Assembly: GCA_045837725.1 (NCBI GenBank)
Contig: JBEWZL010000239.1
Span: forward strand, 434,001-498,000
Origin: Vermamoeba vermiformis
Taxonomy: Eukaryota
Direction of reading: 5' to 3'
DNA: 64,000 bases
The position numbers were made by a program, and so were the translations under genes. This document shows, one piece after another, positions 9,287-54,000 of this stretch. The notes beneath the pieces were generated by a model. The model made no database searches. It was given only the letters and a program-made list of their open reading frames with translations, and was not told the origin of the DNA. How positions within the stretch are numbered: the stretch's first letter is position 1; each line of letters begins with the position of its first letter.

Positions 9287-12200
9287 TCACATCGTAGTAA
9301 TATTAAATTGAGGCTCTACGAGCTGCATCACGACCTCCCAATGCGTAGTTCCGCGCACAATGTACTGCAAATCTGCATCAGGCCAATCACCGAAAGCGTA
9401 CTCTTCACTATTGAAGCATGGTCGAATGCCTTTGATGTACTTGTTATGGGCCCATGTGAGCCACATGTTGTCAGGCTCGTCGTACGTGAATACTTGCGAC
9501 CCATCTGATACCAAAGGAGTTATTAAGTTTCTTAGAAAAGTTATCGGAAGTGACCTCCGAACCGCGATGAATTTCTTACCGTAGATTAAGTCCTTAGGCT
9601 CGTTATCCGTACTAGTCTTTCTCTGGTTCTTGATCTTGATAAAGAAGTTCGCGAAGAATTTTGTAGGTCTATCGGGAGTGTTGTTCAAGTCGTCAAATTC
9701 TTTCGTCAATGAAATGAAGCTCACGTTGGTTGAGCCCCAACTCAATTTTAACTTCCTACAAACATTAATAATGTTAATATTATAGTAGAATTATTAGTTT
9801 AAAACGTACCAATTACAATTATGCAGTTTAAACGTCTTCGTTACTTCTTCACTTTTTCCGTTCAAAAAAAGATCGAAATCGTTGAACGTTAATTGAGCTG
9901 TTTCAATGCGGTAATTGATTGTAGCCAGACTCGTGTTCATTTCTCTATAAGGATTCGCCACTGTTTGTTCTTTATCAACGAAAAAGTTCAAATGGAAGCA
10001 CTGCAAAGCGCCTACAACGCAACTATCAATAAAAGAATGACGAGATTATGTTGTTACGTACTGTCATTATATTTGTCAAATTTGCAATGGTCTAGGACGT
10101 ATTGATGAATATCTGACGTTTTGGACGGGTCAAAATTCTTCTCGGGATGATTGCTAAAAACCAATCAAATGAGCTTACATTACACTAACACTATGATTAA
10201 TATCTTATTACATACCTGCATGAAAGGTGCTCAACAGTCCTAATTCCAGAATTTTCCACGTATTTGGGAGGTTCTCGGACACCCGTGTTCAACCATCGCA
10301 AGGACTGGCGACTTAACGAGTAAAAATACATTAGATATGTATAGATATAAAAATTGTTTGTATTCTTACGTAGTATAATAACTCTTCACCCAAACTGGCA
10401 TCGTCGGGAAAATCTCGCTCAAATTTGCAAAGTCGCTTGTAAACCAACGCGTTTTGCGATAGGTGATGCAGAAGCCTTGTGACCATATGTCTACGACCAA
10501 TCAATTAGTTGATCAAATTATAACAAATCTTACATTTCCAGCCGTAAATGTCCAAATGCGTTTCTTCGTGAAGAATGTAACGCATGAGCAAGATTTTCAT
10601 CAGGCACATCAACTCGATCATTTGGTGCGTGGTCGGATGCACGTGCGGATTAATTTTCTCGGAAGTAGCTGAATTAGCCCGGTAAGTATCAATCGTTCAT
10701 GAAAATACTAATAGATGCATACTTATGGAACCATAGCCGTGAACACGAAGATAAAGTGGTGCAACAACATTGTAGCCTCGTTTATAGTACTTAGCGATAC
10801 GTTCCCATCGCAGCTTTGTGCCGAACTTTGTGCTGCTGTCAAGAAAGTTTGATCCGTAGATTGAACCAAACAAGAATCTGTCAACAAATACGAACATTCA
10901 GTTATCACCTTGATTGTGACATTGAATCAAGTAGAATGAGATTACCTTGGAATGACGAGAACAGTGTCACCGTTGAAACCGACTATGGGTGATGAACGAC
11001 GTTAGTATGAACGGTCAATACATTGTACATTTGTTGTTCTTACTTGAGCACGAGTTCATGTCAGAAGCCAACAAGATCTCCAATGGTGATGCGTAAGTGC
11101 TGTTTCATCATTATTAATAAGGATATGTAAGTATCGATGACGGCCAATCATCGCAAAATGATGGAGCCCTTGGCAAGTAGATGATACTATGACGTACCTT
11201 AATATAATTTGAACGTGTCTAAATCTGTTGTTGGACACCAAAGTGATGGTGTTGGCTGTTTTGACAATTCCGATCTTTTGATCCCAACGAGACTGTATCG
11301 AGTTGAAAATCTCTTCTACTTTAGCTTGCGCTTGTTCAGGTGTCAGCCCATATACGTAAATATCGATGTCAGACTGGTATAAAGAATTATAGTGGCTGGT
11401 CATGGCCTCTGCGTTTGGTCGTTTGTTTTTGCGGAGTGACTTGAGAACGGATCCACCAACAACAAGCACATTCTTCCAGTTGAGATTGCGCAAGCACCCG
11501 TGTGTCATTTGTTTAAAATTTTCTTTGAATTCTTTCTTCGAAGAAACGTAATTAAAGTCAAAACACTCGTTCATGTACGACTGCACGAGGGCCTGTTTCA
11601 CCTGCAATTTCTACCGTTAGTGTCATTATTGAGACTTGATATTATATACTTGATCACTAGGTCTCAGCTTCGTATTGCCTATAAAATGAGCCAGCCTCTT
11701 CTCGTCGAACAAATTGGTCACGAGTGTCTTCTCGAAGTGCTTCAGAAGAGGATTGTTCGGTTGTTTCCAGAACAAGTAGCGAAGCATATCTTCTTCTTGT
11801 TTGATACTAAGAGACATCATCGTTAGTTATAGATGTAATAGAGTGATGAGATCTGTCCTCACCCAGCAGCAATGATGTGTGGATCGAGCTCCCAAACACG
11901 ATGTTGGTAAATGCATCGAAGTGATGTCATTGACAGCTGCGTGTGGATTTTGAATTTAAGTTCTCGAGGGAGAGCTTCGATTTGATTATGAAACATGTCT
12001 TGAACTGTCTCTGTTTGCAAAACATCAGTCACATCCACGGGACAACGTCTTTAAATTGCCTTTACTCACTATTATTGAGGGGATCGCAGGTCATCTCGTT
12101 GATCCATGAGCTAATTTTGAAGATGCAAAGCGAGGAAAGAGACGGAGGTGAGTTCTCCAACGATTTGAAACGCGAAACGGATTTACTTTCATCTTCTTCC

Positions 12201-12464
12201 TTTCTTATTTTTGTCCCTATAATAAATTTAGTTACATAAATATTAAAATTAAGCAACGTACCTGTGACTGGTACTTCGTCTGCTTCTACTAGATCTGCAT
12301 CCTAAGCGATAAAATATTAGCCGCTTGCTTCCTAGTTATTCGCAATATTATTATAACGATCAAGATATTTGGATTTTGGTCCACCACATCCGGTAAAATA
12401 GGAAAGTACCTACGTATTCTGGATCATCAACTTGTTCTAAAAACTCCTCAAAATTGTTTTCCAT
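9287..12464 (-). CDS. BC/SOCS-box-like + nucleotidyltransferase-fold + MATH-like protein, copy A
   Basis: ATG at 12464 (MENNFEEFLEQ). Motifs: PPSLSSLCIFKI and ALPRELKFKI; VLVVGGSVL...SDIDIYVYG; TFKLHNCNW/KLKL...FFANFFIKIKNQ. Multi-exon, mirrored by 16011-19389. Confidence 0.8.
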
Positions 12465-13153
12465 GATTGCTATGTAGACAACTCGAGAACTAGAAATAAA
12501 TACTCAGTTAAACTGCCTCGTCACCGAAATCATTATCTGGCACGTGATTTTCTGAACTGAGAATAACGCCACGTCCCAAGTTGTGAATTCCACGATTAAT
12601 TAGTCACCCCTTTTGATTGTTTATTCGCAGCTATTACAGACGCAAGTATACAAAAAGACAAACGCGTTGCATTCGTTTGGTTACCAGGACCACAGCGGAA
12701 CGGCATCAAAGGGTCGGCCAAAGCACAACCTACAGCAGTACCACGGTACTCAAATGTGCGCCAATCGCCCGAAGAACTAGCGGTCAGCCCGAGTTGTAGC
12801 TGTTGCTATGGTGGTGCGTTAAGGGAGTCTGCACCGAGGGCCTTGCATATGCATCGCGAGTCGCTTGCGACCAACAACCATTGCGACACCAAGTACTTGC
12901 CCGATTGATAATTCGCCGACGCACTGGTTGATGTGCCAGTTATTAGCACTGATGCGGTTAGGTTGGTTGCTTCAAATGCTGAAGGTAACTCCTCAGGACT
13001 TGCTTCTGGGGTGTATTTACTTACGAAGGAAAATCCGCACTCGGAGTTGAATTATTCGTTCGGAAATAGCTTATATCGATATTGATAGCGGTGTAATTGA
13101 CCGCATAACTGCGTTTAATGAACGAGCAGACAGGAGGTAAATAGCTCACGGCT

Positions 13154-14063
13154 TTATCTTCCTTCCAAATAAACTCGTCCAATTTTCTGTATTAATGATC
13201 GTACGAACTCAATTTGACGTTCATTAGGCACGATTTCGAATGGCGGTACATGGAGGAATAACGAATCCGTCTGGTTTTTGTTGGAGGTGTGTAACGAGTG
13301 GTAGCTGCCATCAAAGTTAGTACAAACAATTGAGTAATATTAGCCATAACTTACTAAATATAATTGCAGAGAAATCGTCCCGCATCCTGACTCACGTTAA
13401 CAGGGTAACCCTCAGCGGCCATTTCTTCGCTACGAAAGGTTATTACCCTTGCTTAATATTATAATATTATCTTACTTTAATATCTCTAGAGGCAATTGGC
13501 ATTTATAGCAATGCGTTAAGGTTCCATTGCTCGCAATAATAGGGAGTTCATTTGGCGTCCAGCCTCGTTGATCAGGACAACGGAAAGAAGCCTCTGTAAA
13601 TTCGTATAAATATTATCTTTGATTTAAATACGCTGCGTACCATTCCAGGCAACTTGTTCTAGCAAGAAAGTCGTGGATGTAGCTGCAACACCGAGATGCA
13701 GGTAAAATATTTTTGTATCAGCGGGATGATTTCCTGCAATAGCTTTTTGTCTTTCCAAAACTTGCTCGAAGCTCTCTACAGCTCCAATAGCTGAAGTTTC
13801 ATACACAGTAGTTGAAGCAATTTCAATGCGCGACTAAAAATAATTTTTAAAAATCAGAAAATAATAATTTGCGATGCTTACATCAATAGGATGAGATTGA
13901 AGGTACGCAGGAAATTGTTTCACAAGCTCCTCTTAATAAAATCTCGGGTAAGTCCTTGAACTTTGCAAAATCCGTTATGACTAACAGAGCTACCTGTAGG
14001 ATTGAATTTAACGCCATGAAATTCGCCAAATCCACTCAAATGAATCAATAATCTTTTTGCCAT
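13154..14063 (-). CDS. PGPEP1: Pyroglutamyl-peptidase I (peptidase C15)
   Basis: IHLSGFGEFHGVKFNPT, LHLGV, LLEQVAWNEASFRCPD, SQDAGRFLCNY and LFLHVP supply the Glu-Cys-His triad motifs. Confidence 0.92.
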
Positions 14064-14189
14064 CTTTTTTTGTTGGTGGTGCGGCGTCTCGTCTCCTAAT
14101 TTAATTTGTCCCTTATTTTGTCCCAGAAGCACACAAAACAGTAGCGTTACTCGACTGTTATTGAATAAGCACAAAGACAGCTATACAAT

Positions 14190-15914
14190 ATGGACACTAT
14201 CCCTCAAGATGTCTGGCCGAGGATCGCCGAGTTTATGGATGCCAAAACTAAACGAATTATGCGCTTGGCAAGCACAGCGTGGTTTAATTTGATTAAATAT
14301 AACGACTTCACGTTATATTTTACGAAACTAGAAGACTTGCCGACTATTGTGGACCGATTATCAAAATATTCTTGGCCGATCAAGCTGACATTTGCCCAAC
14401 ACAAATTCACTGTTGCTCCAGAGCTAGTTATGCCCCTGAAAAATCTAACGAATTTACTTGCACTTGATGCGATTTCAGCAGCGTGTTGCGAGAGAGGTCC
14501 TCCCACACGATCCGAGTGGATGCAGCTGTCAACGCTCACGAACATGGAATGCTGGAGATTTATGCCAGGAATTGCACCTTGCGATCTTTATAAGAGCTTT
14601 AAGAAGTTGAAAGAATGGGAGTACTCTGGTGCTGATTATGATGAAGACGAGTCATCAGGACAAGATATACTGGCACTATTACCCGACTTGCATTCGCTCA
14701 GTTATCACGCCAATAGTGACACGTGGCCATTTGCACTCTTACAGAACCCCGAACAACTCACAGAACTGTCTATGAGTGTTGCAGCAACATTCAAGGAGAC
14801 TCAGATGTGGTCCCGTTTAACGAATTTAAAAACGCTAGCTTGCAACGAACACTTTGGAAATAATCACATCGATACCAAGTACCTGACTGCATTGGAGAAT
14901 TGTGCGTTTTCGGTCGGATCTATGCCATCCTTAGAAACAAACACCAACTTGACCCAATTAATATTGAAATGCAAGGAATGGCCCCAAACTAGAGTGGAAT
15001 CAATATCTAATTTAAGAAAGCTTCATCACCTTCACCTTCACTACGACCAACCGCTCCATCTGCTTTCGTTTAGTTTTTTGGCGGAACTTTCCAAGCTGAC
15101 GGAATTGCACCTTCACACCGATCAGATCCCCGATGAATTTCATTTTAAAGAAGAAATGTATCAAAATCTGCCGTCCACCTTGAAAATTCTCAACACTACA
15201 GAGACTTTGGATCTCGCTCAATTAACGCATCTGGTCAATTTGGAGCACCTTCGTGTGGAAACCGCTCCTATTCATACGGAATACTTTTCATACCTTTCCA
15301 ACTTGACTAAGCTTTCGACGTACTGGAACGAGGAGGACAAGGACGAGTACGACCTCAGATCCATAGAACACTTGACAAAACTTGAAGATCTTTCGGTCAA
15401 TGGAATGACGCAAGCCAGGATAATGATAAACATAGCAAAGCTAGGCGCGTTGAAATCCTTAAGATGGAATCGTTTGGATTGTACGAAGGAAACAATAGAT
15501 GGAATTAAAAAACTTTCGAATCTGGAACTGCTGGCACTGACACAAGCTGAAGAACCCATAGAAAGCTACGAATTTTTGTCATATTTGACAAAATTGACGT
15601 CTCTGATGATAAGCGACCGAACTGTTAAAGACGAATCTCTTTGGATCAACCTCACACACCTGACGAACCTGGCAGCTCTGACATTAGAAGAAGTTGGTAT
15701 AACTGACGAAAGATTGATGCAACTAGCCGTGTTAAGACACATTACGAAGCTAGAGATTATCAAGGCGGATTCTACTTTCACCGGATGTCACTTAACGGCC
15801 CTGTCTTCGCTAAAGCGACTCGAGATTATTGGCCGTGGTCTTCAATTAAAATACAAAAAAGAAGATCTAATGAACAGCTTACCCTATCTGTCCTACTATT
15901 CAGAGTGGGTGTAG
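14190..15914 (+). CDS. F-box/leucine-rich repeat protein (intronless)
   Basis: N-terminal MDTIPQDVWPRIAEFM...MRLASTAW is F-box-like, followed by many LxxLTNLxxL repeats over 574 aa. Confidence 0.85.
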   Translation: MDTIPQDVWPRIAEFMDAKTKRIMRLASTAWFNLIKYNDFTLYFTKLEDLPTIVDRLSKYSWPIKLTFAQHKFTVAPELVMPLKNLTNLLALDAISAACCERGPPTRSEWMQLSTLTNMECWRFMPGIAPCDLYKSFKKLKEWEYSGADYDEDESSGQDILALLPDLHSLSYHANSDTWPFALLQNPEQLTELSMSVAATFKETQMWSRLTNLKTLACNEHFGNNHIDTKYLTALENCAFSVGSMPSLETNTNLTQLILKCKEWPQTRVESISNLRKLHHLHLHYDQPLHLLSFSFLAELSKLTELHLHTDQIPDEFHFKEEMYQNLPSTLKILNTTETLDLAQLTHLVNLEHLRVETAPIHTEYFSYLSNLTKLSTYWNEEDKDEYDLRSIEHLTKLEDLSVNGMTQARIMINIAKLGALKSLRWNRLDCTKETIDGIKKLSNLELLALTQAEEPIESYEFLSYLTKLTSLMISDRTVKDESLWINLTHLTNLAALTLEEVGITDERLMQLAVLRHITKLEIIKADSTFTGCHLTALSSLKRLEIIGRGLQLKYKKEDLMNSLPYLSYYSEWV

Positions 15915-16010
15915 TGTAATAAACGCGTTCCAACATTTTTCTGCCTTGTCAAAAAAAGTCGACGGCGCAGCACGAATCGTTTCTTTCTGTTATCTTGCCC
16001 AAGAAGAGAC

Positions 16011-19000
16011 ATGAACTTCGATAATTTTTTGGAGCAGATTGATCGTTCGGATGTAAGATTAATATGCAGATTAGACTGCGTGTGAATCAATATTTATTTT
16101 ATTTACAGGTCGATCCAGGCAATTGGCCAGACCTTCCTGAAGATCCAGAAATAACAGGTACCTAAATTATATAAAAAATTATAGATATTTACTGGTCTAG
16201 GGAGCAATGTTGCTGAAGAAGATGAAAGTAAATCAGTTTCGCGTTTCAAATCGTTGGAGAACTCACCTCCGTCTCTTTCCTCGCTTTGCATCTTCAAAAT
16301 TAGCTCATGGATCAACGAGATGACCTGCGATCCCCTCAATAATAGTGAGTAAAGGCAATTTAAAGACGTTGTCCCGTGGATGTGACTGATGTTTTGCAAA
16401 CAGAGACAGTTCAAGACATGTTTCATAATCAAATCGAAGCTCTCCCTCGAGAACTTAAATTCAAAATCCACACGCAGCTGTCAATGACATCACTTCGATG
16501 CATTTACCAACATCGTGTTTGGGAGCTCGATCCACACATCATTGCTGCTGGGTGAGGACAGATCTCATCACTCTATTACATCTATAACTAACCACAGTAC
16601 CTCTTAGTATCAAACAAGAAGAAGATATGCTTCGTTACTTGTTCTGGAAACAACCGAACAATCCTCTTCTGAAGCACTTCGAGAAGACACTCGTGACCCG
16701 TTTGTTCGAAGATAAAAAGTCAATCGATCTTATTAATACAGCAAAGCTGACACCTACTGCTAATGTAAGCTTACAAATATATTTATATTAGTTAAGTGAT
16801 AATAGCGGCTGATATCGCGCAGGTAAAAGAGTCCCTCGTGCAGGGATATTTGAAAGACTGCCTCGCTTGCAATTTTGTTTCGAAGCAAGAATTCCTTAAA
16901 AACTTTGAAGAAATGACAAATGGCTGCTTAAAGAAGCTGGATTGGAATAACGTTCTTGTTGTTGGTGGATCCGTTCTGAAGTCCGTCAAACAACAAACGG
17001 AATCTCCCAACACTGCGAATAGATACAACGCATCTGATATTGATATGTACTTGTACGGACTGACGAAAGAAGCTGCTCAAGCGAAGGTCCTACAAATTTA
17101 CAAGTCAATCCAGTCTTGCTGGCAGGAAAAGATCGGCATTTTTAAAACAGCCAACACCATCACTTTGGTGTCAAATTCTGAGTTCCGAAACATTCAAATT
17201 ATATTAAGGTACGTCATAGTATCATCTACTTGCCAGGGACTCTATCCTTTTGCGAGATTGGCCGTCATCAATACTTACATATTCCTATTAACACTGATGA
17301 AACAGCACTTACGCATCACCATTGGAGATCTTGTTGGCTTCTGACATGAACTCGTGCTCAAGTAAGAACAACAAAATACAACGTATTGACCGTTCATACT
17401 AACGTCGTTCATTCTCCACACAGTCGGTTTCAACGGTGACACCGTTCTCGTCATTCCAAGGTAATCTCACTCAACTCGATTCAATGTCACAATCAAAGTG
17501 ATAACTGAATGTTCGTATTGTTGACAGATTCTTGTTCGGTTCAATCTACGGATCAAACTTTCTTGACAGCAGCACAAAGTTCGGCACAAAGCTGCGATGG
17601 GAACGTATCGCTAAGTACTATAAACGAGGCTACAATGTTGTTGCACCACTTTATCTTCGTGTTCATGGCTATGGCTCATTCAGTAAGGATCGAGCTTCTG
17701 TAGTACTGTTCGACGCATTCAAATTCATACAACCCAATTTTTTCGTTCTAACAACCAAAATGTCGGCGCTTGTCACGCGACTCCATAGTCACGTGGGACT
17801 TTCCTAATAAGGCATACCCAGAGCCATCCCCAATGGCATTGTTGCCATATGGGGTTGATATAGATGCGATACCTAGGGAGGTCGGGAGAGTGCGCAACAT
17901 TATGGTTGTTTTCGCGAAAAAATCGAGTTGTATGAATTTGAATGCGTCGAACAGTATTATGTAAAACTAATCTCGCATAGATACTGTTGAAAAGATATCC
18001 AAACAAGTTCATCCAACTACCAACCAAATGATCGAGTTGATGTGCTTGATGAAGATGGTGTTGATGCGCATGTCCTACAACAAAGATAACTTCGGTATAA
18101 GTCGTGAGACCGCATTCGATAACTGGCCTAGTAAGTCTGCGTAACTATCTCACACCGTCATTGTAACAATTGATTAGCTCGGTGGGTTCGTGGTGTGTAC
18201 ATTGTGGCCCGCAGCTGTACGGATAATGGATACGAAGACGATGATTATAAAAATCTGTGTAAGGTGCTGCCTAACCCTCCTGAATGGGTAACGAGATATT
18301 ATCAAAAGTACGCACAATCGAATAACAACAACACGCCATTGCACCCGGTTAATTGAGAATATTATTTTCAGACGCCAAATTTTGAAACGACCTGTCATTC
18401 GTGAAGCACCTCGTTATTCGGAAGAAAGCAGAACGATCGATCAAATGAAGTGGAGGTATAACTATAGTCAGTAGACCACCGTGATTTTGATCTAATTATT
18501 CTTCGTAGTAAATCGGAGCAGAATTTTGACCCATCAGAAACTTCAGACATTGACAAATACGTCCGCAATCATTGCAAGTTCGACAACTACAACGAAAGTA
18601 CGTCAAAACTACTGTCCGTATCGTCTTGTTCTAGCTAACATTCACATTGTAGGTGCGTTGCAGTGCTTCCATTTGAACTTGTTCGTGAACAAGGAACAAA
18701 CGGCGGTGAATCCTTATAGAGAAATGAACACGAGTCTCGTCACGATGGACTACCGCACTGAAACGCTGCAGCTGACTTTCACTAATTTCAAATCCTTCTT
18801 GAACGGCGCTGAGAAAAACATCACGCATCAGTTCAAGATGCATAATTACAACTGGTAGGGCCGTAATTTCATAATAATTATTCCGCGAATTGTTCTCACA
18901 TCCGAATTCTTAATAGGAAGTTGAAATTGAAGCGGGCATCGAATAGCGTGAGTTTTATTATGCTGACTAAAGAGCCAGACGAAGAAGACAACGATAGCTT

Positions 19001-19389
19001 CAACAACACTCGATATAGACCAACAAAGTTCTTCGCGAACTTCTTGATCCGGATCAAGAACCAGAAAAAAGTCAATTCCAAATGGCATACAATAGGAGAC
19101 ATAATATACGGTACGCTTTGCAGATCTTATTAACCATGTTATTAACGGATTCGATGGTGCAGACGGATCCCACGTGTTCACGTACAACAGACCCGACAAT
19201 ATGTGGCTCATATGGGTGCATAATAAGTACTTCAATGGAACGCTGAATGACGCTGGAGAAAGTGCAATCCAAATGATGCGCGACTACGAAAATATTGATG
19301 GTAGACCTAGTTACATCGAGCATGGAAACGTGCATTGGGAAATCGTAATGCAACTCATAGAGCCTCATTTTAACATTACGGCAATGTAA
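16011..19389 (+). CDS. BC/SOCS-box-like + nucleotidyltransferase-fold + MATH-like protein, copy B
   Basis: ATG at 16011 (MNFDNFLEQ); VLVVGGSVL...SDIDMYLYG; ends IEPHFNITAM* (copy A ends VEPQFNITTM*). Inverted paralogue of 9287-12464. Confidence 0.8.
17706..17954. mobile_element. MITE, 249 bp, 40-bp TIRs, TA target duplication (Tc1/mariner-like), inside an intron
   Basis: TIRs 17706-17745 and 17915-17954 match 38/40 and extend imperfectly inward. TA at 17704-17705 and 17955-17956. Absent from the equivalent intron of copy A. Confidence 0.92.
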
Positions 19390-35681: not shown

Positions 35682-38600
35682 TTACGTCAGCTTGGTGCCC
35701 TGCGGAAACTTTTCGAAATCGAACTTCAAGAACGGATGTTCGAGGGCTTCTTCAGCTGTAGGCCTGAATAAAAAATATCTTGTCAGTTTGATGTTTACGT
35801 AACACATCCATAAATGGAAAATGTCATTTTAACATTCGATTCAATCGGACGAAAATAAAAATTAATTGTGTTACGGCCGTAACACCTATTCAGTGAATTA
35901 AAATATAAAATTGCAATTTCCGGCCCTTTACGTATGCATTACTTAATTTCATTAAATCAATCCTTAACCGACATCCGGTACTAAATCAAATCGTGACGTA
36001 CCTTTCTCTCGCGTTAACCCTCAACAGCCGTGTCATAAAGTCCAAAAACAATGCGTCGTCAGTTTTCAGTCGTCTCCTCAGTGATGATTTCTTCGGATAC
36101 AAGTACTCGACCGCACCGTTCCTCTTGTCGTAGAGCACTGTGAAGTTCTTCGTGAAGTACTTCGCGGAGTACTTGCCACGCTTCAAATACTTTCGGTCTA
36201 ACTGGCCCATAATTCCTACTAGCCTCGCGAGCAGAGTTTGCACAGAGTCGTTCTGGAACAGCACTTTGCCCGTGTAAAGTTCAGCCAATATACAGCCCAG
36301 CGACCAAATATCTATTCGCTGGTCATACGGCATGCCGAGAATGACCTCTGGAGCACGATATGACCGTGATTGGACGTATGTAGACAAGTGGTCCGTGAGG
36401 AAACAACTGGATCCAAAATCGATAACCTTCACTTCGCACCTATTAGGTAAAAATATACTGTTAGTATACGACTGACCAATAGTACAAGGTATGTATGTCT
36501 CGTCTGCTAACGAGTCATAATAAGGTTGGGCTTAATCATACCTGCTGTAGCTACGCATCAACACGTTTTCAGGCTTGAGATCGCAGTGAATGAGGCCGAG
36601 GCTGTGAATGTATTTCAACGCTACCAGGACCTGCCGAGCGACTTTTTGAATGCGCGGCAGAGTGAAGTAGATCTCTTCTCCTGACTCGCGATTGTACTTG
36701 TAGAACTCGTATAAATTCTCCCGCAGTAACTCGCAGACGATAAACAAGTGTTCTTTGTAATAGAAATAATCTAAAATCAAGCATTAGATATGATTGAACT
36801 ACTTATATATCGCACATACCCAACATCTTGATCACGTGGTTCTCTTCGGTATCGCCATTGGCCTTGATGTATTTCAACAGTTTGATCTCGTCCATGGACT
36901 GGTCCAAGAAGTCTTTGTTGTTCTTGATGATCTTCACGCACACCATTTGTCCAGTCATATGATCTAAGCACTGCACGGCACGTGAGAATGCAGCAGAGCC
37001 CAAGTACTCGATGATTTCATATCGGCCTGCAATGACCTCGTGCAGCCTGATCGGGAAGTCACGTGACTCTTCAAAGCCCGTGCGACCTCGCACGTAAATA
37101 CACTTGAGATTGAAGTACTCGTGCTTGCCGCCTACTGTCTCAACAACATTAACTGTCGAGAAATCTGATTCTTCATCGGCTGATTTGAGCTTGTATTGAA
37201 TGCCTTTCTTCGAGTCACCCAACTCCATTTCAAACACTCCACCGGTCATGGAGGGATTGCGTTCGTGTGGTTTCTTCGTTTGCGATTTTTTCAATTTACC
37301 CGACGAGCCTTTTGAATGGTTCAGCGAAGATTCATCGTCCGAGTCATCAGAGTCAAAGTCTTCTTTTGTTTGTTTGAGCACTTGCGACGATAATATTGAC
37401 ACGTCTGCATCGTCATCATCACTATCACTCACTTCACTAAGAGTGCTTTGCAATTCATCCCAATTATCTACTAAATGTCAGTTGTGGCATACTGAAACAA
37501 GTTGAAACACGAAAAAAAGTATATTTACCTTTCACTGGCACGCGCAAATAGCCTTGATCATCGTCATCAGAGTACTCGTCAGAATCAGACGAGCTCTCGT
37601 CATCGTCAGAAGTCGTGTATTCATCTTCGCTATCCTCGTCATCATCTGACCGCACACTGTCAATCAGCCGAGGGTCCACGGAGTGTGTATATGAATTTTC
37701 TTTAATTGGCTTCACTGTGTCTGAAGAAGATGTCGAGGGGTGACTAGTGTATGACGGCGAGGCCACGGAGTGCTGGCTGGACACGGCTGATTGGCTCGAA
37801 GGATGATCACTCGATGAACCTACCGAGCCCGATTGAATTATTTTTGCAAGTGATGGGTTCTTAAGCGCCGCAATTGGTAGTGATTTGTCGGGTAGTGCAA
37901 AAGTTGGAATGGGCGGAATATTGTTCGGAGTGGTCGGGCCCGAAGTCACCGAGCCAGGATTGGAAAATGTTTTCGTTGTGATAATTGGTGGCAATGCTGG
38001 TGCTGGTGTTTGCACGGGCATGGTACTAGTGTTAGTGCCAGGAGCGGGAAGTATCGGGGCTGTAATGGCCGGTGACGAATTTGACTGTGTGGACGACGGA
38101 GGATACAGCGGCACAACTGGCAATGACGGCATTGACGTTGTTGCAAAGTTGTTTTGTGCCTTGGCGCCCTTCGGCATTGACGCGCTGTTAGGACTCTTCG
38201 GCGAGTTCGGATTGGTGTGACTTCGTGTCGCGCGCACTGAGCTATGGCGCGTCAATTGGCCCGTTGTCCTCGGGCTGTGTTGCAAGGGCGGACGCGTTTC
38301 TTCGAGTAAAGAAGATGTGCGCGGTGAACGGCCGTAAGAAGACGGACTAATAGTAGAGCCTATTTTTGGTGTTTCAGAATTATTATAGTCTTTTCTTAAT
38401 TGCGCAAAAGTGTTTGTCAGTCAAGAACGATTGTAAATTAACGATTGTGATTACATATCATATTACTAGTATATTCGCGTAACTTACCACTCTTTCTAGT
38501 TAATTTTTTAACGTCAATCAGCGGGCCGCTCCATGAAAATGTTCGTGTGGCTCGGTGAGTCAAATACCCGGCTGCAAAGAAAATAAGAATTAAAATTCGC

Positions 38601-47306: not shown

Positions 47307-50300
47307 ATGAATTTAACATTAGAGCAACTGTCTCGCATGGAAAAAAATCGTTTGGCAGCATTGCAGAGGCGCGAAAAAAGTATGATTGATGTTCAAGTCG
47401 ATTTTACTTACCCAGATGTTCGAGATCAAGAACCTCCTGTTGATTTCCAACCGCTGCGTATGAATAGACCTCCTCCACCACGTACCTCGCCGACAAAACC
47501 AAATGCTATTGAGCCAATGATTGAACCTCAGGCGTTCAACGAAGAGTCACCGTCAAAACAACTGAGCCAAGCCATGAAACAAAGCAAAATATCGCAGTTT
47601 CTCGTCAAGACAGAACTACCGCCGCACCAGCCCATCAATATATCAAAGAGTGATCACTCGCCTAATAAAGAGATATCACCTAACAAAGTCAACCAAAAGC
47701 GTTCTTTGCCTGACGATGACCAGATCTCACCCAACAAAAAGTCCAAGACAGAAGCGCAAACCTCTCCCTCGACACCAGTCTCGAACAAATCAGCGCCATC
47801 ACAGACTCAAGTCTTCTTCTCGTTGACGAACAAGAGTCCCTCTGGTGGATCCGCCAAGAGTTTCTACGACGAGCTGCACTCCAGTGGCCACGAAGACTTC
47901 AAGCAAGTTGATTGGTCGATGGACAGTGAGCCCACGCATGACAGCGCGGATTCAGAGTGGATCAACGTCAAGTCTAAGCGGAAGTCATTGCCGAGAAGTG
48001 ATAGTGAAGACATGGCAGTGGCAGCGAGCTCGTTGAAACCAGCGATGAACAGATCCTCGAGTGCTCTGTCTGCAAACTCAGAGGACAACGAAAGCAGCAT
48101 GAAGTCATTGGTAGACACGTTTTCATTCGGCGATGACTTTGACACCGAGGACAGCAACCAGAACTCATTGCCACAAACGACGCATCAGAAACCTGAACCG
48201 AAGAAGAAAAAGAGACGGTCGTCTGCCGGTGCACCAACGATAACAAAGATGTTCTCGCAAATACCCGAAGGCTGTACTCTTATTGGAACAAGTGACGAAC
48301 TGCGAGAGTTTAGCAAGAAGTTGCAGGCAGCCGACAGAGTTTGTTGGGGAGTCACGTGGAAGAACGACACTACTAACTTCCGCATCAACAGAATGGTAAG
48401 AATAACGGTTAGTAGTAAGTATATCCCGTGTTAATTGCAAATTTTAGGGAAAGAAGGCAAACGAAGAAGACATTTTGAATGTCAACGAAGAAGTCATTGG
48501 AGTTAGCTTCTTGGTCGATAAGAAAGAAGACCTTTATTTCTTGAACTTCGAAGAGACTGGCACTGACTTCGACACGTTAAAGTGGCAAATATTGCGAGAG
48601 TTTGTAGAGTCCAAATCGACCTTGAAGGTCTGTTACAATACTCAACGCAGTCTCTTCCCTCTCTTTACACATTTTCCTTATTACGATGGTACGTCTTTAT
48701 GATTTGTTGCTCACGTTTGCTAACCATAAGTAGTTGAGCCAAGCAACCTCTTTGACCCTAAAGTGGCCAGCTGGGTCGTTGAGCCGGAGCTTGACAAACA
48801 AAACTATGACTTCCCTGAGCTCGTATTTTTCTTTCTACGGAAGATCTTGAACATCCCTGACCTCAACAGTCAACACATTCAAAAGGATCTCGTGTTATGT
48901 GACGAGCTTGCAGATCATATCAAGGGCCTATTGCAGCAACAACAATTGATGTCCGCGTTCTATCACGAAATGACCGTTGTTCCTATTATGACCCGTATGG
49001 AGATAGAGGGCATTGGGTTCGATAAGTTATTCTTGCAACAATACAGACAGAGTCTCTTGGTACGTTAAAAGTGCTACTTGGCTTGGCTAATCCGCTTGCA
49101 GAATCGATTGGATGAGTTACAACGGCAAGCTGAGGCGATAGTTGGCCACCCTGTTTCATTGATGAGTCCCAAGCAAGTGTCGGAAGTAATCTATAACGAA
49201 CTACAGCTCGTGCAAGAAGGCTCTAAGGCGAGCATGACCGCGTCCAAGAAGCAAATGTCAACGTCTGAGAAAGTGCTTAAAAGCTTAGGCGAGAAGCACG
49301 CGTTCCCAAACATTGTACGCGAGTACCGTCATATTCAGAAGCACTTGTCGAACTGGATTGACTCACTGGAGAAGTTCGTCGATGCTGTAAGTCCGTACCA
49401 CACTTGTTCTATTTCTAACAGTTGCAAGAATGATGAGCTGGGTCGCATTCACACTCACTGGATGCAAACCAATACAGCAACCGGAAGATTCGCTTCCATG
49501 GCTCCAAACCTCCAGAATTTGCCTAAGAACGCTCTATTTTTGACGTTGGATGATGACGAGGACCAAGAAGAGGGATGGCAAGATGATGAAGAGGACACTG
49601 AGGCCAAGCCCAGCGAAGGACAATCGAGTGTACACGTGAACATTAGAAACGCTTTCTGTAGCAAACCAGGGTATGTGCATCGATTTATGTCAGTATTATC
49701 TAATATTTTGCGCGCAGATATACTCTCTTGGCTGCCGATTACTCTCAGATCGAGTTTCGTATTCTCGCACACATGTCCCAAGATCGTCACTTGCTTGACT
49801 TCTTTAACAGCAATCAGGACATCCATAGTCAAATCGCTAGCCGTTGGCTCGCTAAGCCTATAGAGCAAGTCACAAAACAAGAGCGTGATTATTCTAAGCG
49901 CATCGTTTACGGCATTTTGTACGGCATGGGCGCTCCTGCTCTTGGAGGCATGTTGAAGATCTCTGTAGGTCAAGCTGAGAAGTTTATTAGCACTTTCTTG
50001 GGCAAGGTGAGTTGCTACTTTCTCGAGTTGTTACAGTTACTGACACTCGCTTAGTTCCCGAACGTTGCTCAATTCTTGGACATGACCGTCAAACGTGCAC
50101 GAAGAACTGGCGAAGTGCGAACGCTGTTGAACAGAGTCAGAAAGCTGCCTGGCATTAACAACCAAAACGTTGCGATTGCAAAGCGAGCAGAGAGACAAGC
50201 AGTCAACTCGGTGATTCAAGGGTCAGCTGCTGACTTGGTCAAGCTCGCAATGATCAAAATTGACAGTTTGATCAAGAAGAACGAGAACGGCATTGGTAAC

Positions 50301-51038: not shown

Positions 51039-54000
51039 ATGTTTAATTTGCGCCTATTACAAGAGATTCGTGGTCAAATCCCACTCCCAAAGGGTCAATC
51101 CCTCACGCACTTCGTCTCAGATTCAGAAACTGGACGAATTTATTGCTTAACAAGCAAATATGAAGTTATTGCATACGACCCATTAAAGAATACGGTAAGT
51201 AATGATTGATAATTTAATTTTGAGATCGGGTTATAAAATATACAGACAGTCTAAATTACTTTAATTAAACTAGAATAAATATAACTAATCTCTAAAAATT
51301 ATTATATAAATTATTGGCGCAAACGAAGACTAGATCGCCCTTTTGAGTTTCTGCTATTTTTCTCAACACGAATTATTATCGACCCAACTAATAAATTAAT
51401 TTTATTAATAATATGTAATTGGTTGTTTATTTTACTTTAATTGACTCTAATTTATAATTTTTTTGCACAGATCCCGTTTACATATTCAGTCAAATCGTTG
51501 ATTAAAGACGAGCCCAATGTCGTTGCATTTGCCTATGTACCTGATACACAGTCCGTATGTCTTGCAACTCGCGATGGTGATATCATTACTGTCGAAGTCG
51601 AGACTGGCAAGGTAAGTCTGCACGATCGGATCGAACTCTACAGGCGTAGAAATTAACGCAATATTTGCTTTAGATGGAATGCGTTGGTAGCATTGACACT
51701 GGCATCACGGCCATGTCGTGGAGTCCTGACTGTGAGATTGTTATCTTTACTACCGGTGAAGGCAATTTGTTGCTGATGACGCAAGATTGGGAGGTCATTA
51801 CTGAAGTGTCGCTCGTGCCTGACAACGAGGACAACAAAATTAAGTTAGACGCGACAGTCTTGCCTCGTGTTACTTGGCGTGGCGACGGAAATTTCTTTGC
51901 TATCAGCACCAACGAGAACGGAAAGATCAAACATCGCGTGTGGGAGCGATCGTGCCAAGTCAACTCTAACAGCGAGGCCATCAAGGATCAGTCATCTATT
52001 TTGGCATGGAAGTACGTATTATGATAATAGGACTCGGCCTTAATTAAAATATGTCGATAGAGCTAATAACTAATTTGATGTTTTGAATAGGCCATCAGGA
52101 GAACTCATTGCCTCCGTGCAAGTTCACCCGACTAAAAAAGATATTATTTTCTTCGAACGAAACGGCCTTCGCCACGGTGAATTCACATTGAAAGACAATC
52201 ACGATGTGATAGATGTCCAATGGAACGCTGATTCTGACACCCTCGCTATTCTGATGTTCGACAAAGAGAAGAATTCGTCTGTGGTTCAATTGTGGACTGC
52301 TAAGAACTATTACTGGTACTTGAAACAAGAATACATTTATCAAACCCGCGTGGCTGACATCAAATGGGACGCTGAGCGTGGTCTCGTGTTACACGTCACA
52401 ACTGTTGGTAAGTCTAACATAACCATATCAGGCATATTACCTTTTTTGGTCATTAGCTGATGACTTCGGCATTTGTCTTACTGTTTGAGTGACGACAAAA
52501 AACGAGCTACCTTAAACTAATCACTGAAAATAATGACCAATATTTTTTAATATCAATATTTTATTTCGTTATTTCCCTATTCTAACGGTGCTTATTAGAG
52601 GGTCACTATCACATGTACAAATTAATCCGTGAAGTTGATCGCCATGACGGTGTTTTCCCACAAAACGAAAATTACGTCGCAGTGATTGACGGCGCCAATG
52701 TTTATTTGACACCTATGCGACGTGTCACCACACCTCCGCCTCAATATTCCTCCAAGATTACTGTCACTGACGGCAAGGTCAACGCGGTTGCTTTCTGTCA
52801 CGGCAGCAATGATTTGTTGGTTTTAACTTCACACAACGTGTTGCACGGATACAAACTGAATGATTTCAACGACTTTGTGCTCGGTCAACGCGATGCCAAT
52901 AACAGACCAATCCCGCCCGTGTACTCCAAGCCTCACACTCACTTGGGCTCAATGAGGTACGGTTACTCTATTATTTAATGATTCAGCAATATTGAATCGT
53001 GAATCTAGCCTTGACCCTGGCATGGCTTTGCGTCAAATCGCATGGTTAAATGCTGACACGTGGGCTGGTCTCGAGGCCAATTTGAGTCCCGCACCGTGCT
53101 CAGTGGTGTGCGGCAATGTTGACTGGGGTGTCTCTAGCCCTCCCAACAACGTTGAACTTCCCTCACGTGGTCTCAGATTCATCGCCCCTCAGCGCCCTGG
53201 CCTCACTCCTGCTGTTGAGTGCGAAGACGGCAACGTGTTCAAGTTCGAGTCGAGTAAGTGACACGTGTCACATTTGACACTTGCACCTTTGCTAACAGTT
53301 GTTTTCTAGCACACTTTTCGGCAGAAGACTTTGGCATGGCGCACATTCCCACCGTCAAGTTCCCTACAGCCTGTGCGTGGGTCAGCTCAGCCATCATGGG
53401 CGGCGAAGAAGTTTTCATTGGTCTTAGTGAGCGAAACAAGCTTTATGTCAACACCGTCACTGTCTCCAGCGAGTGCAATTCATTCGCCCTTCACAGCAAC
53501 TACGTCTTGTTCACCACTTTGAGTCACGTGCTTCGCTTCATGAACCTTCAGCGCACGGTCCAAGGTAAGTCTAATGTCGTTGTAGGTGATATCCTAATAT
53601 CTCGTAGAAAACGTGGCTGTATTTGGCATTACCCGCCAGTACGATGATTCCCTGCGCGAGGTTGAGAACGGCGCTCAAATCGTCAGTGTCGTTCCTTTGG
53701 GCACTAAAGTTACTTTGCAAATGCCTCGTGGCAACTTGGAAGCCATTGAGCCACGTGCTTTGATGGTGTATTACATTCGTCAGTTGTTGGCGGATTACCA
53801 GTACGGCCAAGCTTTCACCATGATGCGCCGTCACCGCATTGATTTGAACTTTTTCTACGACAACAATCCTCGTGTCTTCTTGGACCATTTGAAGGACTTT
53901 GTGGAACAAGTGGACAACGTCGAGTACCTCAACTTATTCATCTCAGCCTTGCGCGACGAAGATGTCACCAAGACCATTTTCATTGACCCGTGGTTCAAGC

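Follow-up and report, generated by a model that had tools for sequence, protein, structure and literature searches.

A head-to-head pair of paralogous genes in Vermamoeba vermiformis encoding predicted Gad2-family nucleotidyltransferase proteins with a BC-box-like helical module

Introduction

The question raised by this locus is what kind of protein is encoded twice, in opposite orientations, between positions 9287 and 19389 of the window, by which we mean the whole 64,000-nucleotide stretch of Vermamoeba vermiformis DNA analysed here. The original prediction, made from the sequence alone, described a fusion of an Elongin-BC/cullin box, a Pol-beta-type nucleotidyltransferase (NTase) and a MATH-like domain, and suggested a sensor coupled to ubiquitination. 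Here we ask whether the segments belong to single genes, which of the domains hold up, and what the proteins might do.

One named protein recurs in the analysis. Gad2 (Gabija anti-defence protein 2), a phage protein after which Pfam 38.1 names the family PF26128, is an NTase by AlphaFold prediction, according to the portion of the preprint available (bioRxiv 10.1101/2023.05.01.538930). It defeats Gabija, and the portions of the Gad2 literature at hand describe no enzymatic mechanism.

Results

Two intact and transcribed genes in head-to-head orientation

The span runs from the stop codon of copy A to the stop codon of copy B, and the genes are arranged head to head, their start codons lying 3.5 kb apart (Table 1). 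The peptide strings quoted in the original prediction were found in stop-to-stop frames on both strands; one of them, QIILR, crosses a donor site and is not part of the spliced protein, which reads QIIL-S-TYASP. The inverted pairing was borne out by 12 inverted repeat pairs, far above chance, the longest of which corresponds to tract 1 in Table 1. A tblastn search of the window returned copies A and B and no third copy, and neither an additional copy in the intergenic DNA of the window nor tandem repeats at the locus were detected. The unrelated ORF between the two start codons encodes leucine-rich repeats (Pfam LRR_14, 8.3e-11) and has a weak F-box match under the cut-off (0.037); the small ORFs between copy A and this gene had no Pfam match. 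No defence-island markers were found in the neighbourhood of the pair. The locus is best explained as two paralogous nuclear genes that form an old pair, head to head, in a eukaryote with short, fungal-type introns.

Table 1. Coordinates of the genes, domains, motifs and conversion tracts in the window
Feature	Position	Strand	Details
Gene copy A	9287..12464	-	744 aa, 16 exons; GT-AG model, frame open
Copy A exons 1-8	12464-12414, 12301-12262, 12216-12070, 12010-11863, 11806-11650, 11601-11198, 11099-11044, 10982-10946	-	
Copy A exons 9-16	10877-10723, 10668-10534, 10490-10370, 10311-10216, 10153-10062, 10011-9810, 9755-9580, 9504-9287	-	Last exon with stop
Gene copy B	16011..19389	+	749 aa, 16 exons; GT-AG model, frame open
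Copy B exons 1-8	16011-16052, 16109-16157, 16201-16344, 16404-16551, 16608-16764, 16823-17208, 17306-17361, 17424-17460	+	
Copy B exons 9-16	17528-17682, 17981-18130, 18178-18307, 18372-18455, 18509-18597, 18653-18854, 18917-19110, 19163-19389	+	Last exon with stop
Unrelated single-exon ORF	14169..15914	+	581 aa stop to stop; between the A and B start codons
BC-box-like + Cul2-box-like composite, copy A	11946..12142	-	Residues 56-101; consensus regex match
BC-box-like SLSSLCIFKI, copy A	12142-12113	-	Residues 56-65
Cul2-box/F-box-like LPRELKFKI, copy A	11972-11946	-	Residues 93-101; beyond intron 3
BC-box-like + Cul2-box-like composite, copy B	16272..16468	+	Residues 55-100 (BC-box 55-64); protein identical to copy A
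Gad2-family (PF26128-type) NTase domain, copy A	10751..11891	-	Residues 120-389 including N-terminal helix; 207 bits, E 4e-65
NTase motif G230-G231-S232, copy A	11457-11449	-	
NTase motif D259-I-D261, copy A	11370-11362	-	
NTase motif D329, copy A	11062-11060	-	
NTase domain, copy B	16523..17663	+	Residues 119-385; 194 bits, E 7e-61
C-terminal domain, copy A	9290..10065	-	Residues 546-744; alternating hydrophobic, beta-like stretches; originally called MATH-like
C-terminal domain, copy B	18594..19386	+	Residues ~545-749; start coordinate approximate
Gene-conversion tract 1	11699..12199, partner 16215-16715		Exons 3-5; 501 nt at 98%; intron 3 100% identical; dS 0.027
Gene-conversion tract 2	10714..11149, partner 17256-17691		Exons 7-9 and introns 6-8; 91-100% identical; dS 0.10

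A Logan contig of 2,421 nt contained an uninterrupted ORF of 757 amino acids, here called P0154, which was colinear from Met to stop with the models of both A and B and showed zero indels at the exon junctions. This supports a single transcript for all of the segments. Spliced contigs from run X1, at least 99% alike, contained at least 11 GT-AG joints, 6 in copy A and 5 in copy B. Among the joints listed (11 of 18), 9 agreed with the models built from coordinates (six of copy A and three of copy B), while 2 defined the 5' end of copy B, the small second exon of which was established by spliced contigs. The copy A junction 11044|10982 was backed by a loose contig end from the same run. RNA runs X9 to X11 yielded 26 to 32 reads each, which were 95% to 99% alike and covered conserved pieces only; they originate from a relative and are little informative. 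Each copy has its own, copy-specific spliced contigs, and the two genes, both intact, are transcribed and their transcripts spliced.

Purifying selection and gene conversion

In the comparison of copy A with copy B, the dN/dS values were 0.21 for the N-terminal half of the NTase, 0.16 for the C-terminal domain and 0.13 to 0.21 for the core, with dS values of 1.3 to 1.8 outside the conversion tracts. Both genes are under purifying selection. Introns inside the 2 converted tracts were 89% to 100% identical. The inverted arrangement has allowed these recent conversions, by which the N-terminal module and the latter half of the catalytic core are made alike in the two copies, and the pair represents a clear example of conversion between inverted paralogues.

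A predicted nucleotidyltransferase core of the Gad2 family

The claim of an NTase was supported. An hmmsearch profile of 12 family members from outside the subfamily matched the proteins of copies A and B, pA and pB, with high significance (Table 1), and the catalytic residues were conserved. The Pol-beta motif hG[GS]..[DE]h[DE]h is present in pA as VVGGS (230-232) and SDIDIY (259-261), and is the same in pB and P0154; the GG and DxD positions were at least 90% conserved in family alignments of 90 and 92 sequences. So was a third acidic residue, D329 in pA and D326 in P0154, which would be the third metal ligand. All positions that were at least 90% conserved over the 92 sequences, including the GG, the DxD and the third Asp, are retained in P0154, pA and pB. 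The usual spacing from GG to DxD in Pol-beta NTases is 9 to 13 residues; in the window proteins it is 26 residues. The subfamily also replaces residues that are invariant in the 12 core members (D192N, D199N, R177T, RRS at R224/R225 and YE at Y229/E230), substitutions by which activity could have been altered or lost.

A phmmer search of 1.84 billion representatives with P0001, which is 65% identical to exon 6, gave 1801 matches at E<=1e-3. Among the 150 matches listed, most fell on residues ~25 to 285 of P0001, and a dozen short fragments from close relatives fell on the C-terminal half. The domain PF26128.2, called Gad2 in the Atlas, was precomputed on 5 of 5 relatives (P0001, P0159, P0160, P0161 and P0162) and on Atlas clusters; the label is borne by these relatives, and pA and pB are tied to the family through the 12-member profile and not through the PF26128 model. 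The nucleotidyltransferase family phrog_1614 was matched by 43 of the 92 family members at E<=0.01 (best 1.6e-9), with a value of 0.008 for P0154 over residues 254 to 347, and phrog_4400 by 22 of the 92. Exon 6 by itself gave no PHROG NTase match.

No curated-level Pfam match was obtained on the exon pieces of A and B or on relatives. Below the cut-off, NTase families were matched in 15 of 72 members, always on the DxD strand and helix: Polbeta in 9 (at best 20.5 bits against a cut-off of 26.9), NTP_transf_2 in 4, NTP_transf_6 in 2 and AbiEii in 1, with P0095 matching two of them. Over the 92 members, Polbeta was matched by 12. In a sequence search of the PDB and in searches with profiles A1, A2, A4 and A5, the matches listed included no relative of the NTase core, of the N-terminal module or of the C-terminal domain; they comprised a septin coiled coil (E 1.2) and a designed repeat protein, along with TPR proteins that aligned to the TPR part of relatives.

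A large family with many partner domains

The annotated Gad2 of Bacillus phage SPbetaL7 matched phrog_4400 (7.9e-27) and phrog_1614 (8.2e-6). Direct comparisons failed: the validated Gad2 gave no score above 500 shuffles with the family HMMs, hhalign of profile A2 against the single validated Gad2 gave a probability of 1% and an E-value of 0.05 with colinear motifs, and a tblastn search of 50,697 phage records with P0012 returned nothing. The apparent link to Gad2 is therefore transitive, running through phrog_4400 and phrog_1614.

The original prediction placed this NTase subtype in fungal and giant-virus proteins, often with ankyrin repeats, and such homologues were indeed found. The family includes Dictyostelium PARPs and members from Allomyces, Blastocystis, Anaeramoeba, agaric fungi and giant-virus MAGs (for example Dictyostelium purpureum XP_003286677.1, Allomyces KNE66554.1, Anaeramoeba KAJ5067611.1 and GVMAG locus L003); its history in eukaryotes and giant-virus MAGs is an ancient one. 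Partner domains in 38 chosen matches were ankyrin in 15, PARP in 8 and TPR in 5, with WD40, BTB_2, ubiquitin and PNK3P+AAA_33 found once each; some proteins carried several partners and 11 carried none. Other fusions of the domain in the family involve PARP together with BRCT/WGR, PNK-phosphatase plus kinase and, among phage members, ADP-ribosyltransferases. Such partners would suggest that the substrates are nucleic-acid ends or ADP-ribose-linked molecules, within pathways of damage or conflict.

We noted that 17 PADLOC families were matched among the 92 members, mostly by the names of partner domains such as ankyrin and kinases, with AbiEii matched in 2 at weak E-values; no PADLOC defence model matched the NTase domain in these members. 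Two scans of metagenomes for genomic relatives gave 285 and 597 pattern matches, none of which was confirmed. No paper naming PF26128 was found in the literature, the available portions of 2 PARP surveys do not mention the NTase domain, and among 8.4 million papers and preprints no text joining Gad2 and Gabija with eukaryotic ankyrin proteins was found.

A conserved helical module in front of the core

Each of the two proteins consists of four parts: an acidic N-terminus with a helical module of ~70 residues, the NTase, a helical middle and a subfamily-specific C-terminal domain. The original statement that no described protein joins the claimed parts is upheld in so far as none was found in our searches, but the architecture is not confined to this genome, being the same in P0154, P0159, P0155, P0160 and P0005. 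The combination of parts is new, in an NTase family that is known but functionally uncharacterised. None of the subfamily proteins looked up in the Atlas (P0001, P0154 and P0155) was present there, and 0 of the 4 inner branches of the subfamily tree were starred.

The module covers residues ~52 to 119 of pA, and its core is formed by the composite of a BC-box-like and a Cul2-box-like motif, identified with consensus patterns taken from PMC13342108. Of 2000 shuffled versions of pA, 29% also contained a match to the BC-box regex and 2% a match to the composite. At the module position, the strict BC-box form was present in 10 of the 17 relatives listed. When the module was aligned by hhalign with its counterpart in the wider family, the probability was 84.5% and the E-value 6.9e-6, and the reciprocal module HMM identified P0009 (1.9e-8), P0161 (1.3e-6) and P0025 (2.3e-6). 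At least 12 further proteins among those compared have a homologous module immediately before the NTase, and the module was found in 13 to 15 of the 174 proteins compared. The core L-x3-[CSA]-x3-hydrophobic, followed by a hydrophobic-P-x2-hydrophobic motif, is preserved in very distant members. BTB_2 takes the place of the module in 4 of the 92 members, and in one Atlas cluster, which has 66 members, BTB_2 is carried by 98% and Gad2 by 89%.

The claim of a BC box plus a cullin box holds at the level of pattern only: the BC-box and Cul2-box patterns are present and conserved, whereas neither a Cul5 box nor a supporting Pfam or PDB profile match was found. The SOCS-type Cul5-box consensus, LP-hydrophobic-P, is absent downstream of the BC-box. 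No Pfam match to SOCS, VHL, F-box or Elongin A was obtained in P0154 (E<=10) or in 72 family members (E<=0.3), and among 11 pieces searched the sole E3-box-type match was PRANC on exon 4 (E 0.056, 14.2 bits against a cut-off of 25.8). Where PDB profile searches spanned the module, all of the matches listed (60 of 129 in one search) were to a designed repeat protein or to TPR proteins. The Atlas model of residues 12 to 90 of P0015 resembled models of LRRC41/MUF1, with TM values by query of 0.63 and 0.60, and the other Atlas neighbours of this module were generic MgtE_N-type helical bundles (TM 0.52 to 0.60).

A subfamily-specific C-terminal domain

The C-terminal domain HMM identified members of the subfamily only, in searches of 174 proteins and six-frame translations of 13 loci, and a search with residues 540 to 757 of P0154 returned only P0001 and P0159. 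In the C-terminal half, copy B was 67% identical to P0154. The proposed MATH domain found no profile match. There was no MATH in Pfam for the exon pieces (E<=1), for P0154, P0155 and P0005 (E<=10) or for P0160 (E<=0.3), and in the PDB the subfamily profile A4 matched only a designed repeat protein, aligned to the helical middle.

Discussion

We favour, with slightly better than even confidence, the explanation that the paralogous pair joins the module, a Gad2-family NTase, a helical middle and a subfamily C-terminal domain into an active NTase that is docked to a partner. As far as the sequences allow a prediction, the protein would be an active nucleotidyltransferase, the N-terminal module would dock it to the partner and the subfamily-specific C-terminal domain would select the target. 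Our best guess for the partner, held with somewhat less than even confidence, would be an Elongin BC/cullin-type ligase because the module carries the conserved BC-box and Cul2-box pattern. The module may also bear a likeness to Elongin A. That the protein is coupled to ubiquitination, or serves in defence, is conjecture.

It is unlikely, but worth serious weight, that the module is unrelated to ubiquitin ligases and forms a helical lid or a regulatory bundle peculiar to the family, the protein being a free-standing, end-modifying nucleotidyltransferase of DNA/RNA repair. The module always lies directly before the NTase, even behind TPR arrays, as if the two were one unit, its structural neighbours are mostly the generic helical bundles, and E3-box profile matches are absent; the BRCT-WGR-PARP and PNK3P + AAA_33 fusions would fit strand-break chemistry. 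Against this, the two hydrophobic motifs are kept even in very distant members, and many family members have no module, so that it is not obligatory for the catalytic unit.

The fuller version of the ligase idea, as originally proposed, is in our view distinctly unlikely. According to it, the protein would be a cullin-RING substrate receptor with a SOCS/VHL-type box, a MATH/TRAF-like substrate-binding domain and an NTase acting as a nucleotide-sensing or signal-making switch in innate defence. The conserved composite, the LRRC41-like model of a relative's module and the substitution of BTB_2 for the module are consistent with such a receptor; the C-terminal domain, with conserved W/F positions and a periodicity like that of strands, would fit a beta-sandwich, and the anti-defence function of the phage relative and the homologues in giant-virus MAGs would fit the defence role. 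However, not a single MATH, SOCS or VHL profile matched, the Cul5-box consensus is absent, none of the PADLOC defence models fell on the NTase domain in the 92 members, and the neighbourhood bears no marks of a defence island.

Our confidence is similarly low in a broader scenario, in which an old branch of the phage Gad2 NTases, large and unstudied, would exist in eukaryotes and giant viruses and would be repeatedly wired to cullin-RING adaptors (by BC/Cul2-box here, by BTB in other lineages), ubiquitin and PARPs, the window proteins being receptors that couple nucleotide transfer, onto the target or its ADP-ribose, to ubiquitination. If true, a eukaryotic conflict or damage pathway would have a catalytic module in common with a phage counter-defence enzyme.

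That the NTase core has lost all enzymatic activity, leaving a pure scaffold, is very unlikely: it would account for the replaced D192, D199, R177, R224/R225 and Y229/E230 of the 12-member alignment, but all of the positions conserved across the 92 sequences, the catalytic ones included, are kept in P0154, pA and pB, and the dN/dS values of the core are low. An inverted duplicate with near-identical tracts might also suggest that the assembly is in error, that the two copies are pseudogenes or that they belong to a mobile element, a reading of negligible probability that we rejected on the frames open across 16 exons in both copies, the dS values of 1.3 to 1.8 outside the tracts with dN/dS of ~0.2, the copy-specific spliced contigs, and the lack of tandem repeats and further intergenic copies in the window.

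The window pair provides a compact, intact and expressed family member suited to biochemistry. Across the family, the set of partners (PARP/BRCT/WGR, PNK phosphatase-kinase, BTB, ubiquitin and ankyrin/TPR) suggests strand-break or ADP-ribose chemistry together with ligase coupling. The NTase domain is widespread in eukaryotes, whereas Gad2 homologues are described, in the portion of the source available, almost always from phages and prophages (bioRxiv 10.1101/2023.05.01.538930).

The C-terminal domain resembles MATH/TRAF domains (SPOP and the TRAFs) in pattern only, with 7 to 8 short alternating-hydrophobic stretches, an early conserved Trp and a hydrophobic last strand, but differs in having no Pfam or PDB profile match. 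Similarly, the window module shows no profile similarity to the VHL-/SOCS-box receptors, such as LRRC41 and Elongin A, and has no Cul5 box. The nearest named eukaryotic cluster to the predicted model of the module in the relative P0015 is nonetheless LRRC41 (MUF1), and MUF1 binds Elongin BC/Cul5 according to the portion of the source available (PMC4812663).

With Gad2, the family has in common the Pfam label on close relatives, the matches to phrog_4400 and phrog_1614, the prediction of a Pol-beta-type NTase on both sides, and the motif order AGG[SA], DxDI[FY], Q-x-I, FD..C.G.FD and R..KY. In contrast, the phage Gad2 is a single unit of 400 amino acids with 11 residues between GGA and DVD, whereas the window core has a gap of 26 residues and lies inside a 745-aa multi-domain eukaryotic protein. 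The Gad2-like proteins of eukaryotes and giant viruses, annotated as hypothetical, ankyrin or PARP proteins, do not have the window C-terminal domain and end instead in another tail (SDY...GSF.P....W) or in ankyrin arrays, but their cores are 20% to 40% identical to the window core and a subset carries the same N-terminal module.

Each Copy Is Probably a Single Expressed Gene

Models of copies A and B, the only 2 copies of the gene in the window, were built from stop-to-stop frames and enumerated in-frame GT..AG joins, and the introns of both were short and of the GT-AG type (see table). A small second exon in copy B was revealed by spliced contigs, at least 99% alike, from sequencing run X1, which is classed as RNA by a guessed label only. 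The X1 contigs contained at least 11 GT-AG joints; among those listed, 9 matched the GT-AG models (6 in copy A and 3 in copy B), and 2 defined the 5' end of copy B. Since the contigs skip the introns exactly, they must derive from processed transcripts.

The strongest test of 1 gene versus several is provided by the relative P0154, an uninterrupted ORF of 757 aa in a 2,421-nt Logan contig, which matched both models colinearly from the first Met to the stop codon, with zero indels at the exon junctions. This single ORF spans all segments and supports 1 gene per copy rather than separate genes, in line with the original prediction, which had read each protein as a fusion. Copies A and B are an intact, expressed and selected pair, encoding predicted nucleotidyltransferases (NTases) of the Gad2 family with the catalytic residues in place.

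It was also noted that raw RNA reads from runs X9-X11 (95% to 99% alike) covered only 2 short conserved pieces and continued into unlike sequence on either side of them. These reads appear to be transcripts of a homolog from a related organism.

Features of the window discussed in the text
Feature	Position	Strand	Description
Copy A	12464 to 9287	minus	16 exons, 744 aa (pA)
Copy B	16011 to 19389	plus	16 exons, 749 aa (pB)
Intron 9 of copy B	17683-17980		298 nt
Pieces covered by X9-X11 reads	18025-18074; 11759-11807		short, conserved
Single-exon ORF	14169-15914	plus	between the A and B start codons; 581 aa stop to stop
"tRNA-Stop"	15089-15184	minus	ARAGORN; anticodon tta, 96 nt; inside the leucine-rich repeat ORF
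Ordinary nuclear genes	35986-37477 (-); 49069-49863 (+); 53598-54296 (+); 57775-58326 (-)		listed: protein kinase, family-A DNA polymerase, ELP1, dynamin-type GTPase

Divergence and Gene Conversion Between the Copies

The 2 genes are arranged head to head with their start codons 3.5 kb apart, and the predicted inverted pair was borne out by their opposite strands and by a 501-nt inverted repeat at 98% identity. The overall identity between pA and pB was 68.7%, distributed as a mosaic. Exons 3 to 5 and their introns, which constitute the inverted repeat, were 89% to 100% identical, and exons 7 to 9 with introns 6 to 8 were 91% to 100% identical. The remaining exons and introns were 73% to 84% identical, except for introns 9 and 11, in which short aligned parts reached about 91%. 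Synonymous divergence was 0.03 and 0.10 in 2 tracts and 1.3 to 1.8 or saturated elsewhere, while dN/dS was 0.21 over the N-terminal half of the catalytic domain and 0.16 in the C-terminal domain. This pattern indicates that the duplication is old, that both copies are under purifying selection, and that 2 tracts have recently undergone gene conversion.

In the C-terminal half, which lies outside these tracts, copy B was more similar to P0154 (67%) than to copy A (56%), so the 2 copies probably arose before their lineage diverged from that of P0154. The relatives P0159 and P0155 represent further lineages (43% to 47%); the branching was not resolved in the subfamily tree, the subfamily comprising pA, pB, P0154, P0159, P0155, P0160, and P0005.

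Intron 9 was 54 nt in copy A, whereas in copy B it was enlarged by a palindrome of about 260 nt, which folds into a single long hairpin (-75.8 kcal/mol, z -12.2); none of 200 shuffles folded as well. The insert looks like a foldback (MITE-like) insertion, and no second copy was found in the window. The ORF between the start codons was unrelated to the pair; it encoded leucine-rich repeats (LRR_14, 8.3e-11) together with an N-terminal F-box match that was weak and below the cut-off (E 0.037), and was partly covered by X1 contigs. The tRNA call inside it was probably a false positive, with no Rfam tRNA call there at the gathering threshold.

Sequence Evidence Places the Central Domain in the Gad2 Family

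No match to the central domain was obtained in a local Pfam scan of exon pieces and close relatives, or in PDB sequence and profile searches. When 1.84 billion representatives were searched by phmmer with the relative P0001, 1801 matches were obtained at E<=1e-3; among the 150 listed, most covered residues 25 to 285 or thereabouts, and a dozen short fragments of close relatives aligned to the C-terminal half. A profile of 12 members from outside the subfamily recovered pA with 207 bits (E 4e-65, residues 120 to 389) and pB with 194 bits (E 7e-61). The precomputed label PF26128.2 was carried by 5 of 5 matches in a second relative search; membership in PF26128, named Gad2 in Pfam 38.1 according to the output of the structure-cluster resource Atlas, is read here from such labels of relatives.

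Furthermore, at E<=0.01 the profile phrog_1614, "nucleotidyltransferase", had matches in 43 of the 92 members of the family (the best at 1.6e-9; P0154 0.008, P0160 7e-4, P0015 2e-5), and phrog_4400 had matches in 22 of the 92. Below-cut-off Pfam matches to Polbeta, NTP_transf_2, NTP_transf_6, and AbiEii, which form 1 clan, were seen in 15 of 72 members, in every case over the DxD strand and the helix that follows it. The positions conserved in at least 90% of the 92 sequences (GG, DxD, a Gln, and a later Asp, Gly, Arg, and Lys) were all kept in P0154, pA, and pB, and the subfamily replaces several residues that are invariant in the 12-member core set. We conclude from these sequence comparisons that the central domain is a Gad2-family NTase with a predicted Pol-beta-type fold, and the predicted enzyme is probably active. 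The NTase originally proposed is supported by the profile scores, the phrog_1614 matches in the family, and the retained catalytic residues.

The family is catalogued, but the literature searched contained no study of its branch in eukaryotes: no paper found mentioned PF26128 or joined Gad2, Gabija, eukaryotic, and ankyrin, and the domain is absent from the accessible portions of 2 PARP surveys. The architecture described here is new within the Gad2 family and common to a handful of unnamed database proteins.

The N-Terminal Module and the C-Terminal Domain

The segments SLSSLCIFKI (residues 56 to 65) and LPRELKFKI (93 to 101) of pA fit the BC-box and Cul2-box consensus, respectively, as quoted in the available part of PMC13342108; pA does not fit the Cul5-box form. 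The patterns are weak, with the BC box occurring in 29% and the composite in 2% of 2000 pA shuffles, and the conservation of the module counts for more. A helix of the form L-x3-[CSA]-x3-hydrophobic followed by a hydrophobic-P-x2-hydrophobic motif was found directly before the NTase in 13 to 15 of 174 proteins, and kept this position behind TPR arrays; other members have an N-terminal BTB_2 domain in its place. The subfamily module aligned with that of the wider family in hhalign (Prob 84.5%, E 6.9e-6), and a reciprocal HMM search of a small protein set recovered P0009, P0161, P0025, P0118, and P0059 at 1.9e-8 to 1.8e-4.

The Atlas model of P0015 (residues 12 to 90) came closest to generic helical bundles of the MgtE_N type and to models of LRRC41, the latter with TM values by query of 0.63 and 0.60. 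According to the text available from PMC4812663, LRRC41/MUF1 is a binding partner of Elongin BC and Cul5. Profiles for SOCS, VHL, F-box, and Elongin A had zero matches in P0154 or the 72 members scanned, a PRANC match in 1 of 11 pieces scanned (E 0.056) is at chance level, and no PDB chain matched the module among the matches listed (60 of 129 in 1 profile search). Of the proposed ligase box, the BC-box and Cul2-box fit and a conserved module stand, while the Cul5-box form and an E3-box profile match do not; we give true docking to a cullin ligase slightly less than an even chance.

Residues 546 to 744 were conserved in pA, pB, P0154, P0159, and P0155, and more distant in P0160 and P0005 (20% to 23%). 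An HMM of this domain found nothing beyond the subfamily among the proteins and loci gathered in this analysis, and a database search returned P0001 and P0159 only. The alignment contained 7 or 8 short alternating-hydrophobic stretches, compatible with a putative beta-sandwich. Neither Pfam nor PDB profiles linked the domain to MATH/TRAF, leaving the MATH-like reading unsupported by sequence.

Fusion Partners and Proposed Function

Named family members include the PARP proteins of Dictyostelium and Cavenderia, and proteins of Allomyces, Blastocystis, Anaeramoeba, Gymnopilus, and Clastostelium. Among 38 chosen matches, some with more than 1 partner, we identified ankyrin in 15, PARP in 8 (5 also with WGR, 3 of these also with BRCT), TPR in 5, and WD40, BTB_2, ubiquitin, and PNK3P+AAA_33 in 1 each; 11 had no recognizable partner.

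In the TPR-bearing relatives (P0011, P0028, P0060, P0113, and others; alignment A5), the TPRs precede the N-terminal module and match PP5, CHIP, SGT, and RPAP3 chains in PDB (best 3.2e-20). Since this class of TPR binds Hsp70/Hsp90 tails, some family members may be chaperone-linked.

The predicted enzyme would move a nucleotide onto a macromolecular acceptor, chosen by the subfamily-specific C-terminal domain, and the N-terminal module would tether it to another protein, for which Elongin BC with a cullin is a possible candidate. Candidate substrates would be DNA or RNA ends or ADP-ribose-linked, as pointed to by the fusions to BRCT-WGR-PARP, PNK phosphatase-kinase, and, in an Atlas phage cluster, ADP-ribosyltransferases. 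The neighborhood of the pair contained no marker of a defence island, the 4 nuclear genes elsewhere in the window gave no virus or defence-island sign, and no PADLOC model matched the NTase core. The suggested role in defence is accordingly no finding of this analysis but a lead that comes from the phage relative.

Comparison with Viral and Phage Proteins

The IMG/VR scan gave 11 loci, 8 of them labeled giant-virus MAGs; with the ankyrin counts, these bear out the link to ankyrin proteins of fungi and giant viruses made in the original prediction. The N-terminal module was in 0 of the 11. One giant-virus MAG contig (locus L003, 2899-7077, +) encodes more than 1393 aa in a single open frame, which begins with a Gad2-like NTase, including the GSFHP...W tail of the family, and continues as a long repeat-rich region, a layout like that of the eukaryotic ankyrin proteins.

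Among the anti-Gabija proteins of SPbeta-like phages, Gad2 is described, in the accessible part of its report, as the second, with 400 aa and an AlphaFold prediction of a nucleotidyltransferase (bioRxiv 10.1101/2023.05.01.538930); 2026 reviews, in the portions available, add no mechanism. The SPbetaL7 CDS annotated as Gad2 matched phrog_4400 at 7.9e-27 and phrog_1614 at 8.2e-6, a transitive link to the family through shared profiles. Direct sequence tests fail: family HMMs did not score SPbetaL7 Gad2 above 500 shuffles, tblastn with P0012 gave zero phage matches, and hhalign of the family against the single Gad2 sequence gave Prob 1%, even though the order of the motifs agrees in that alignment.
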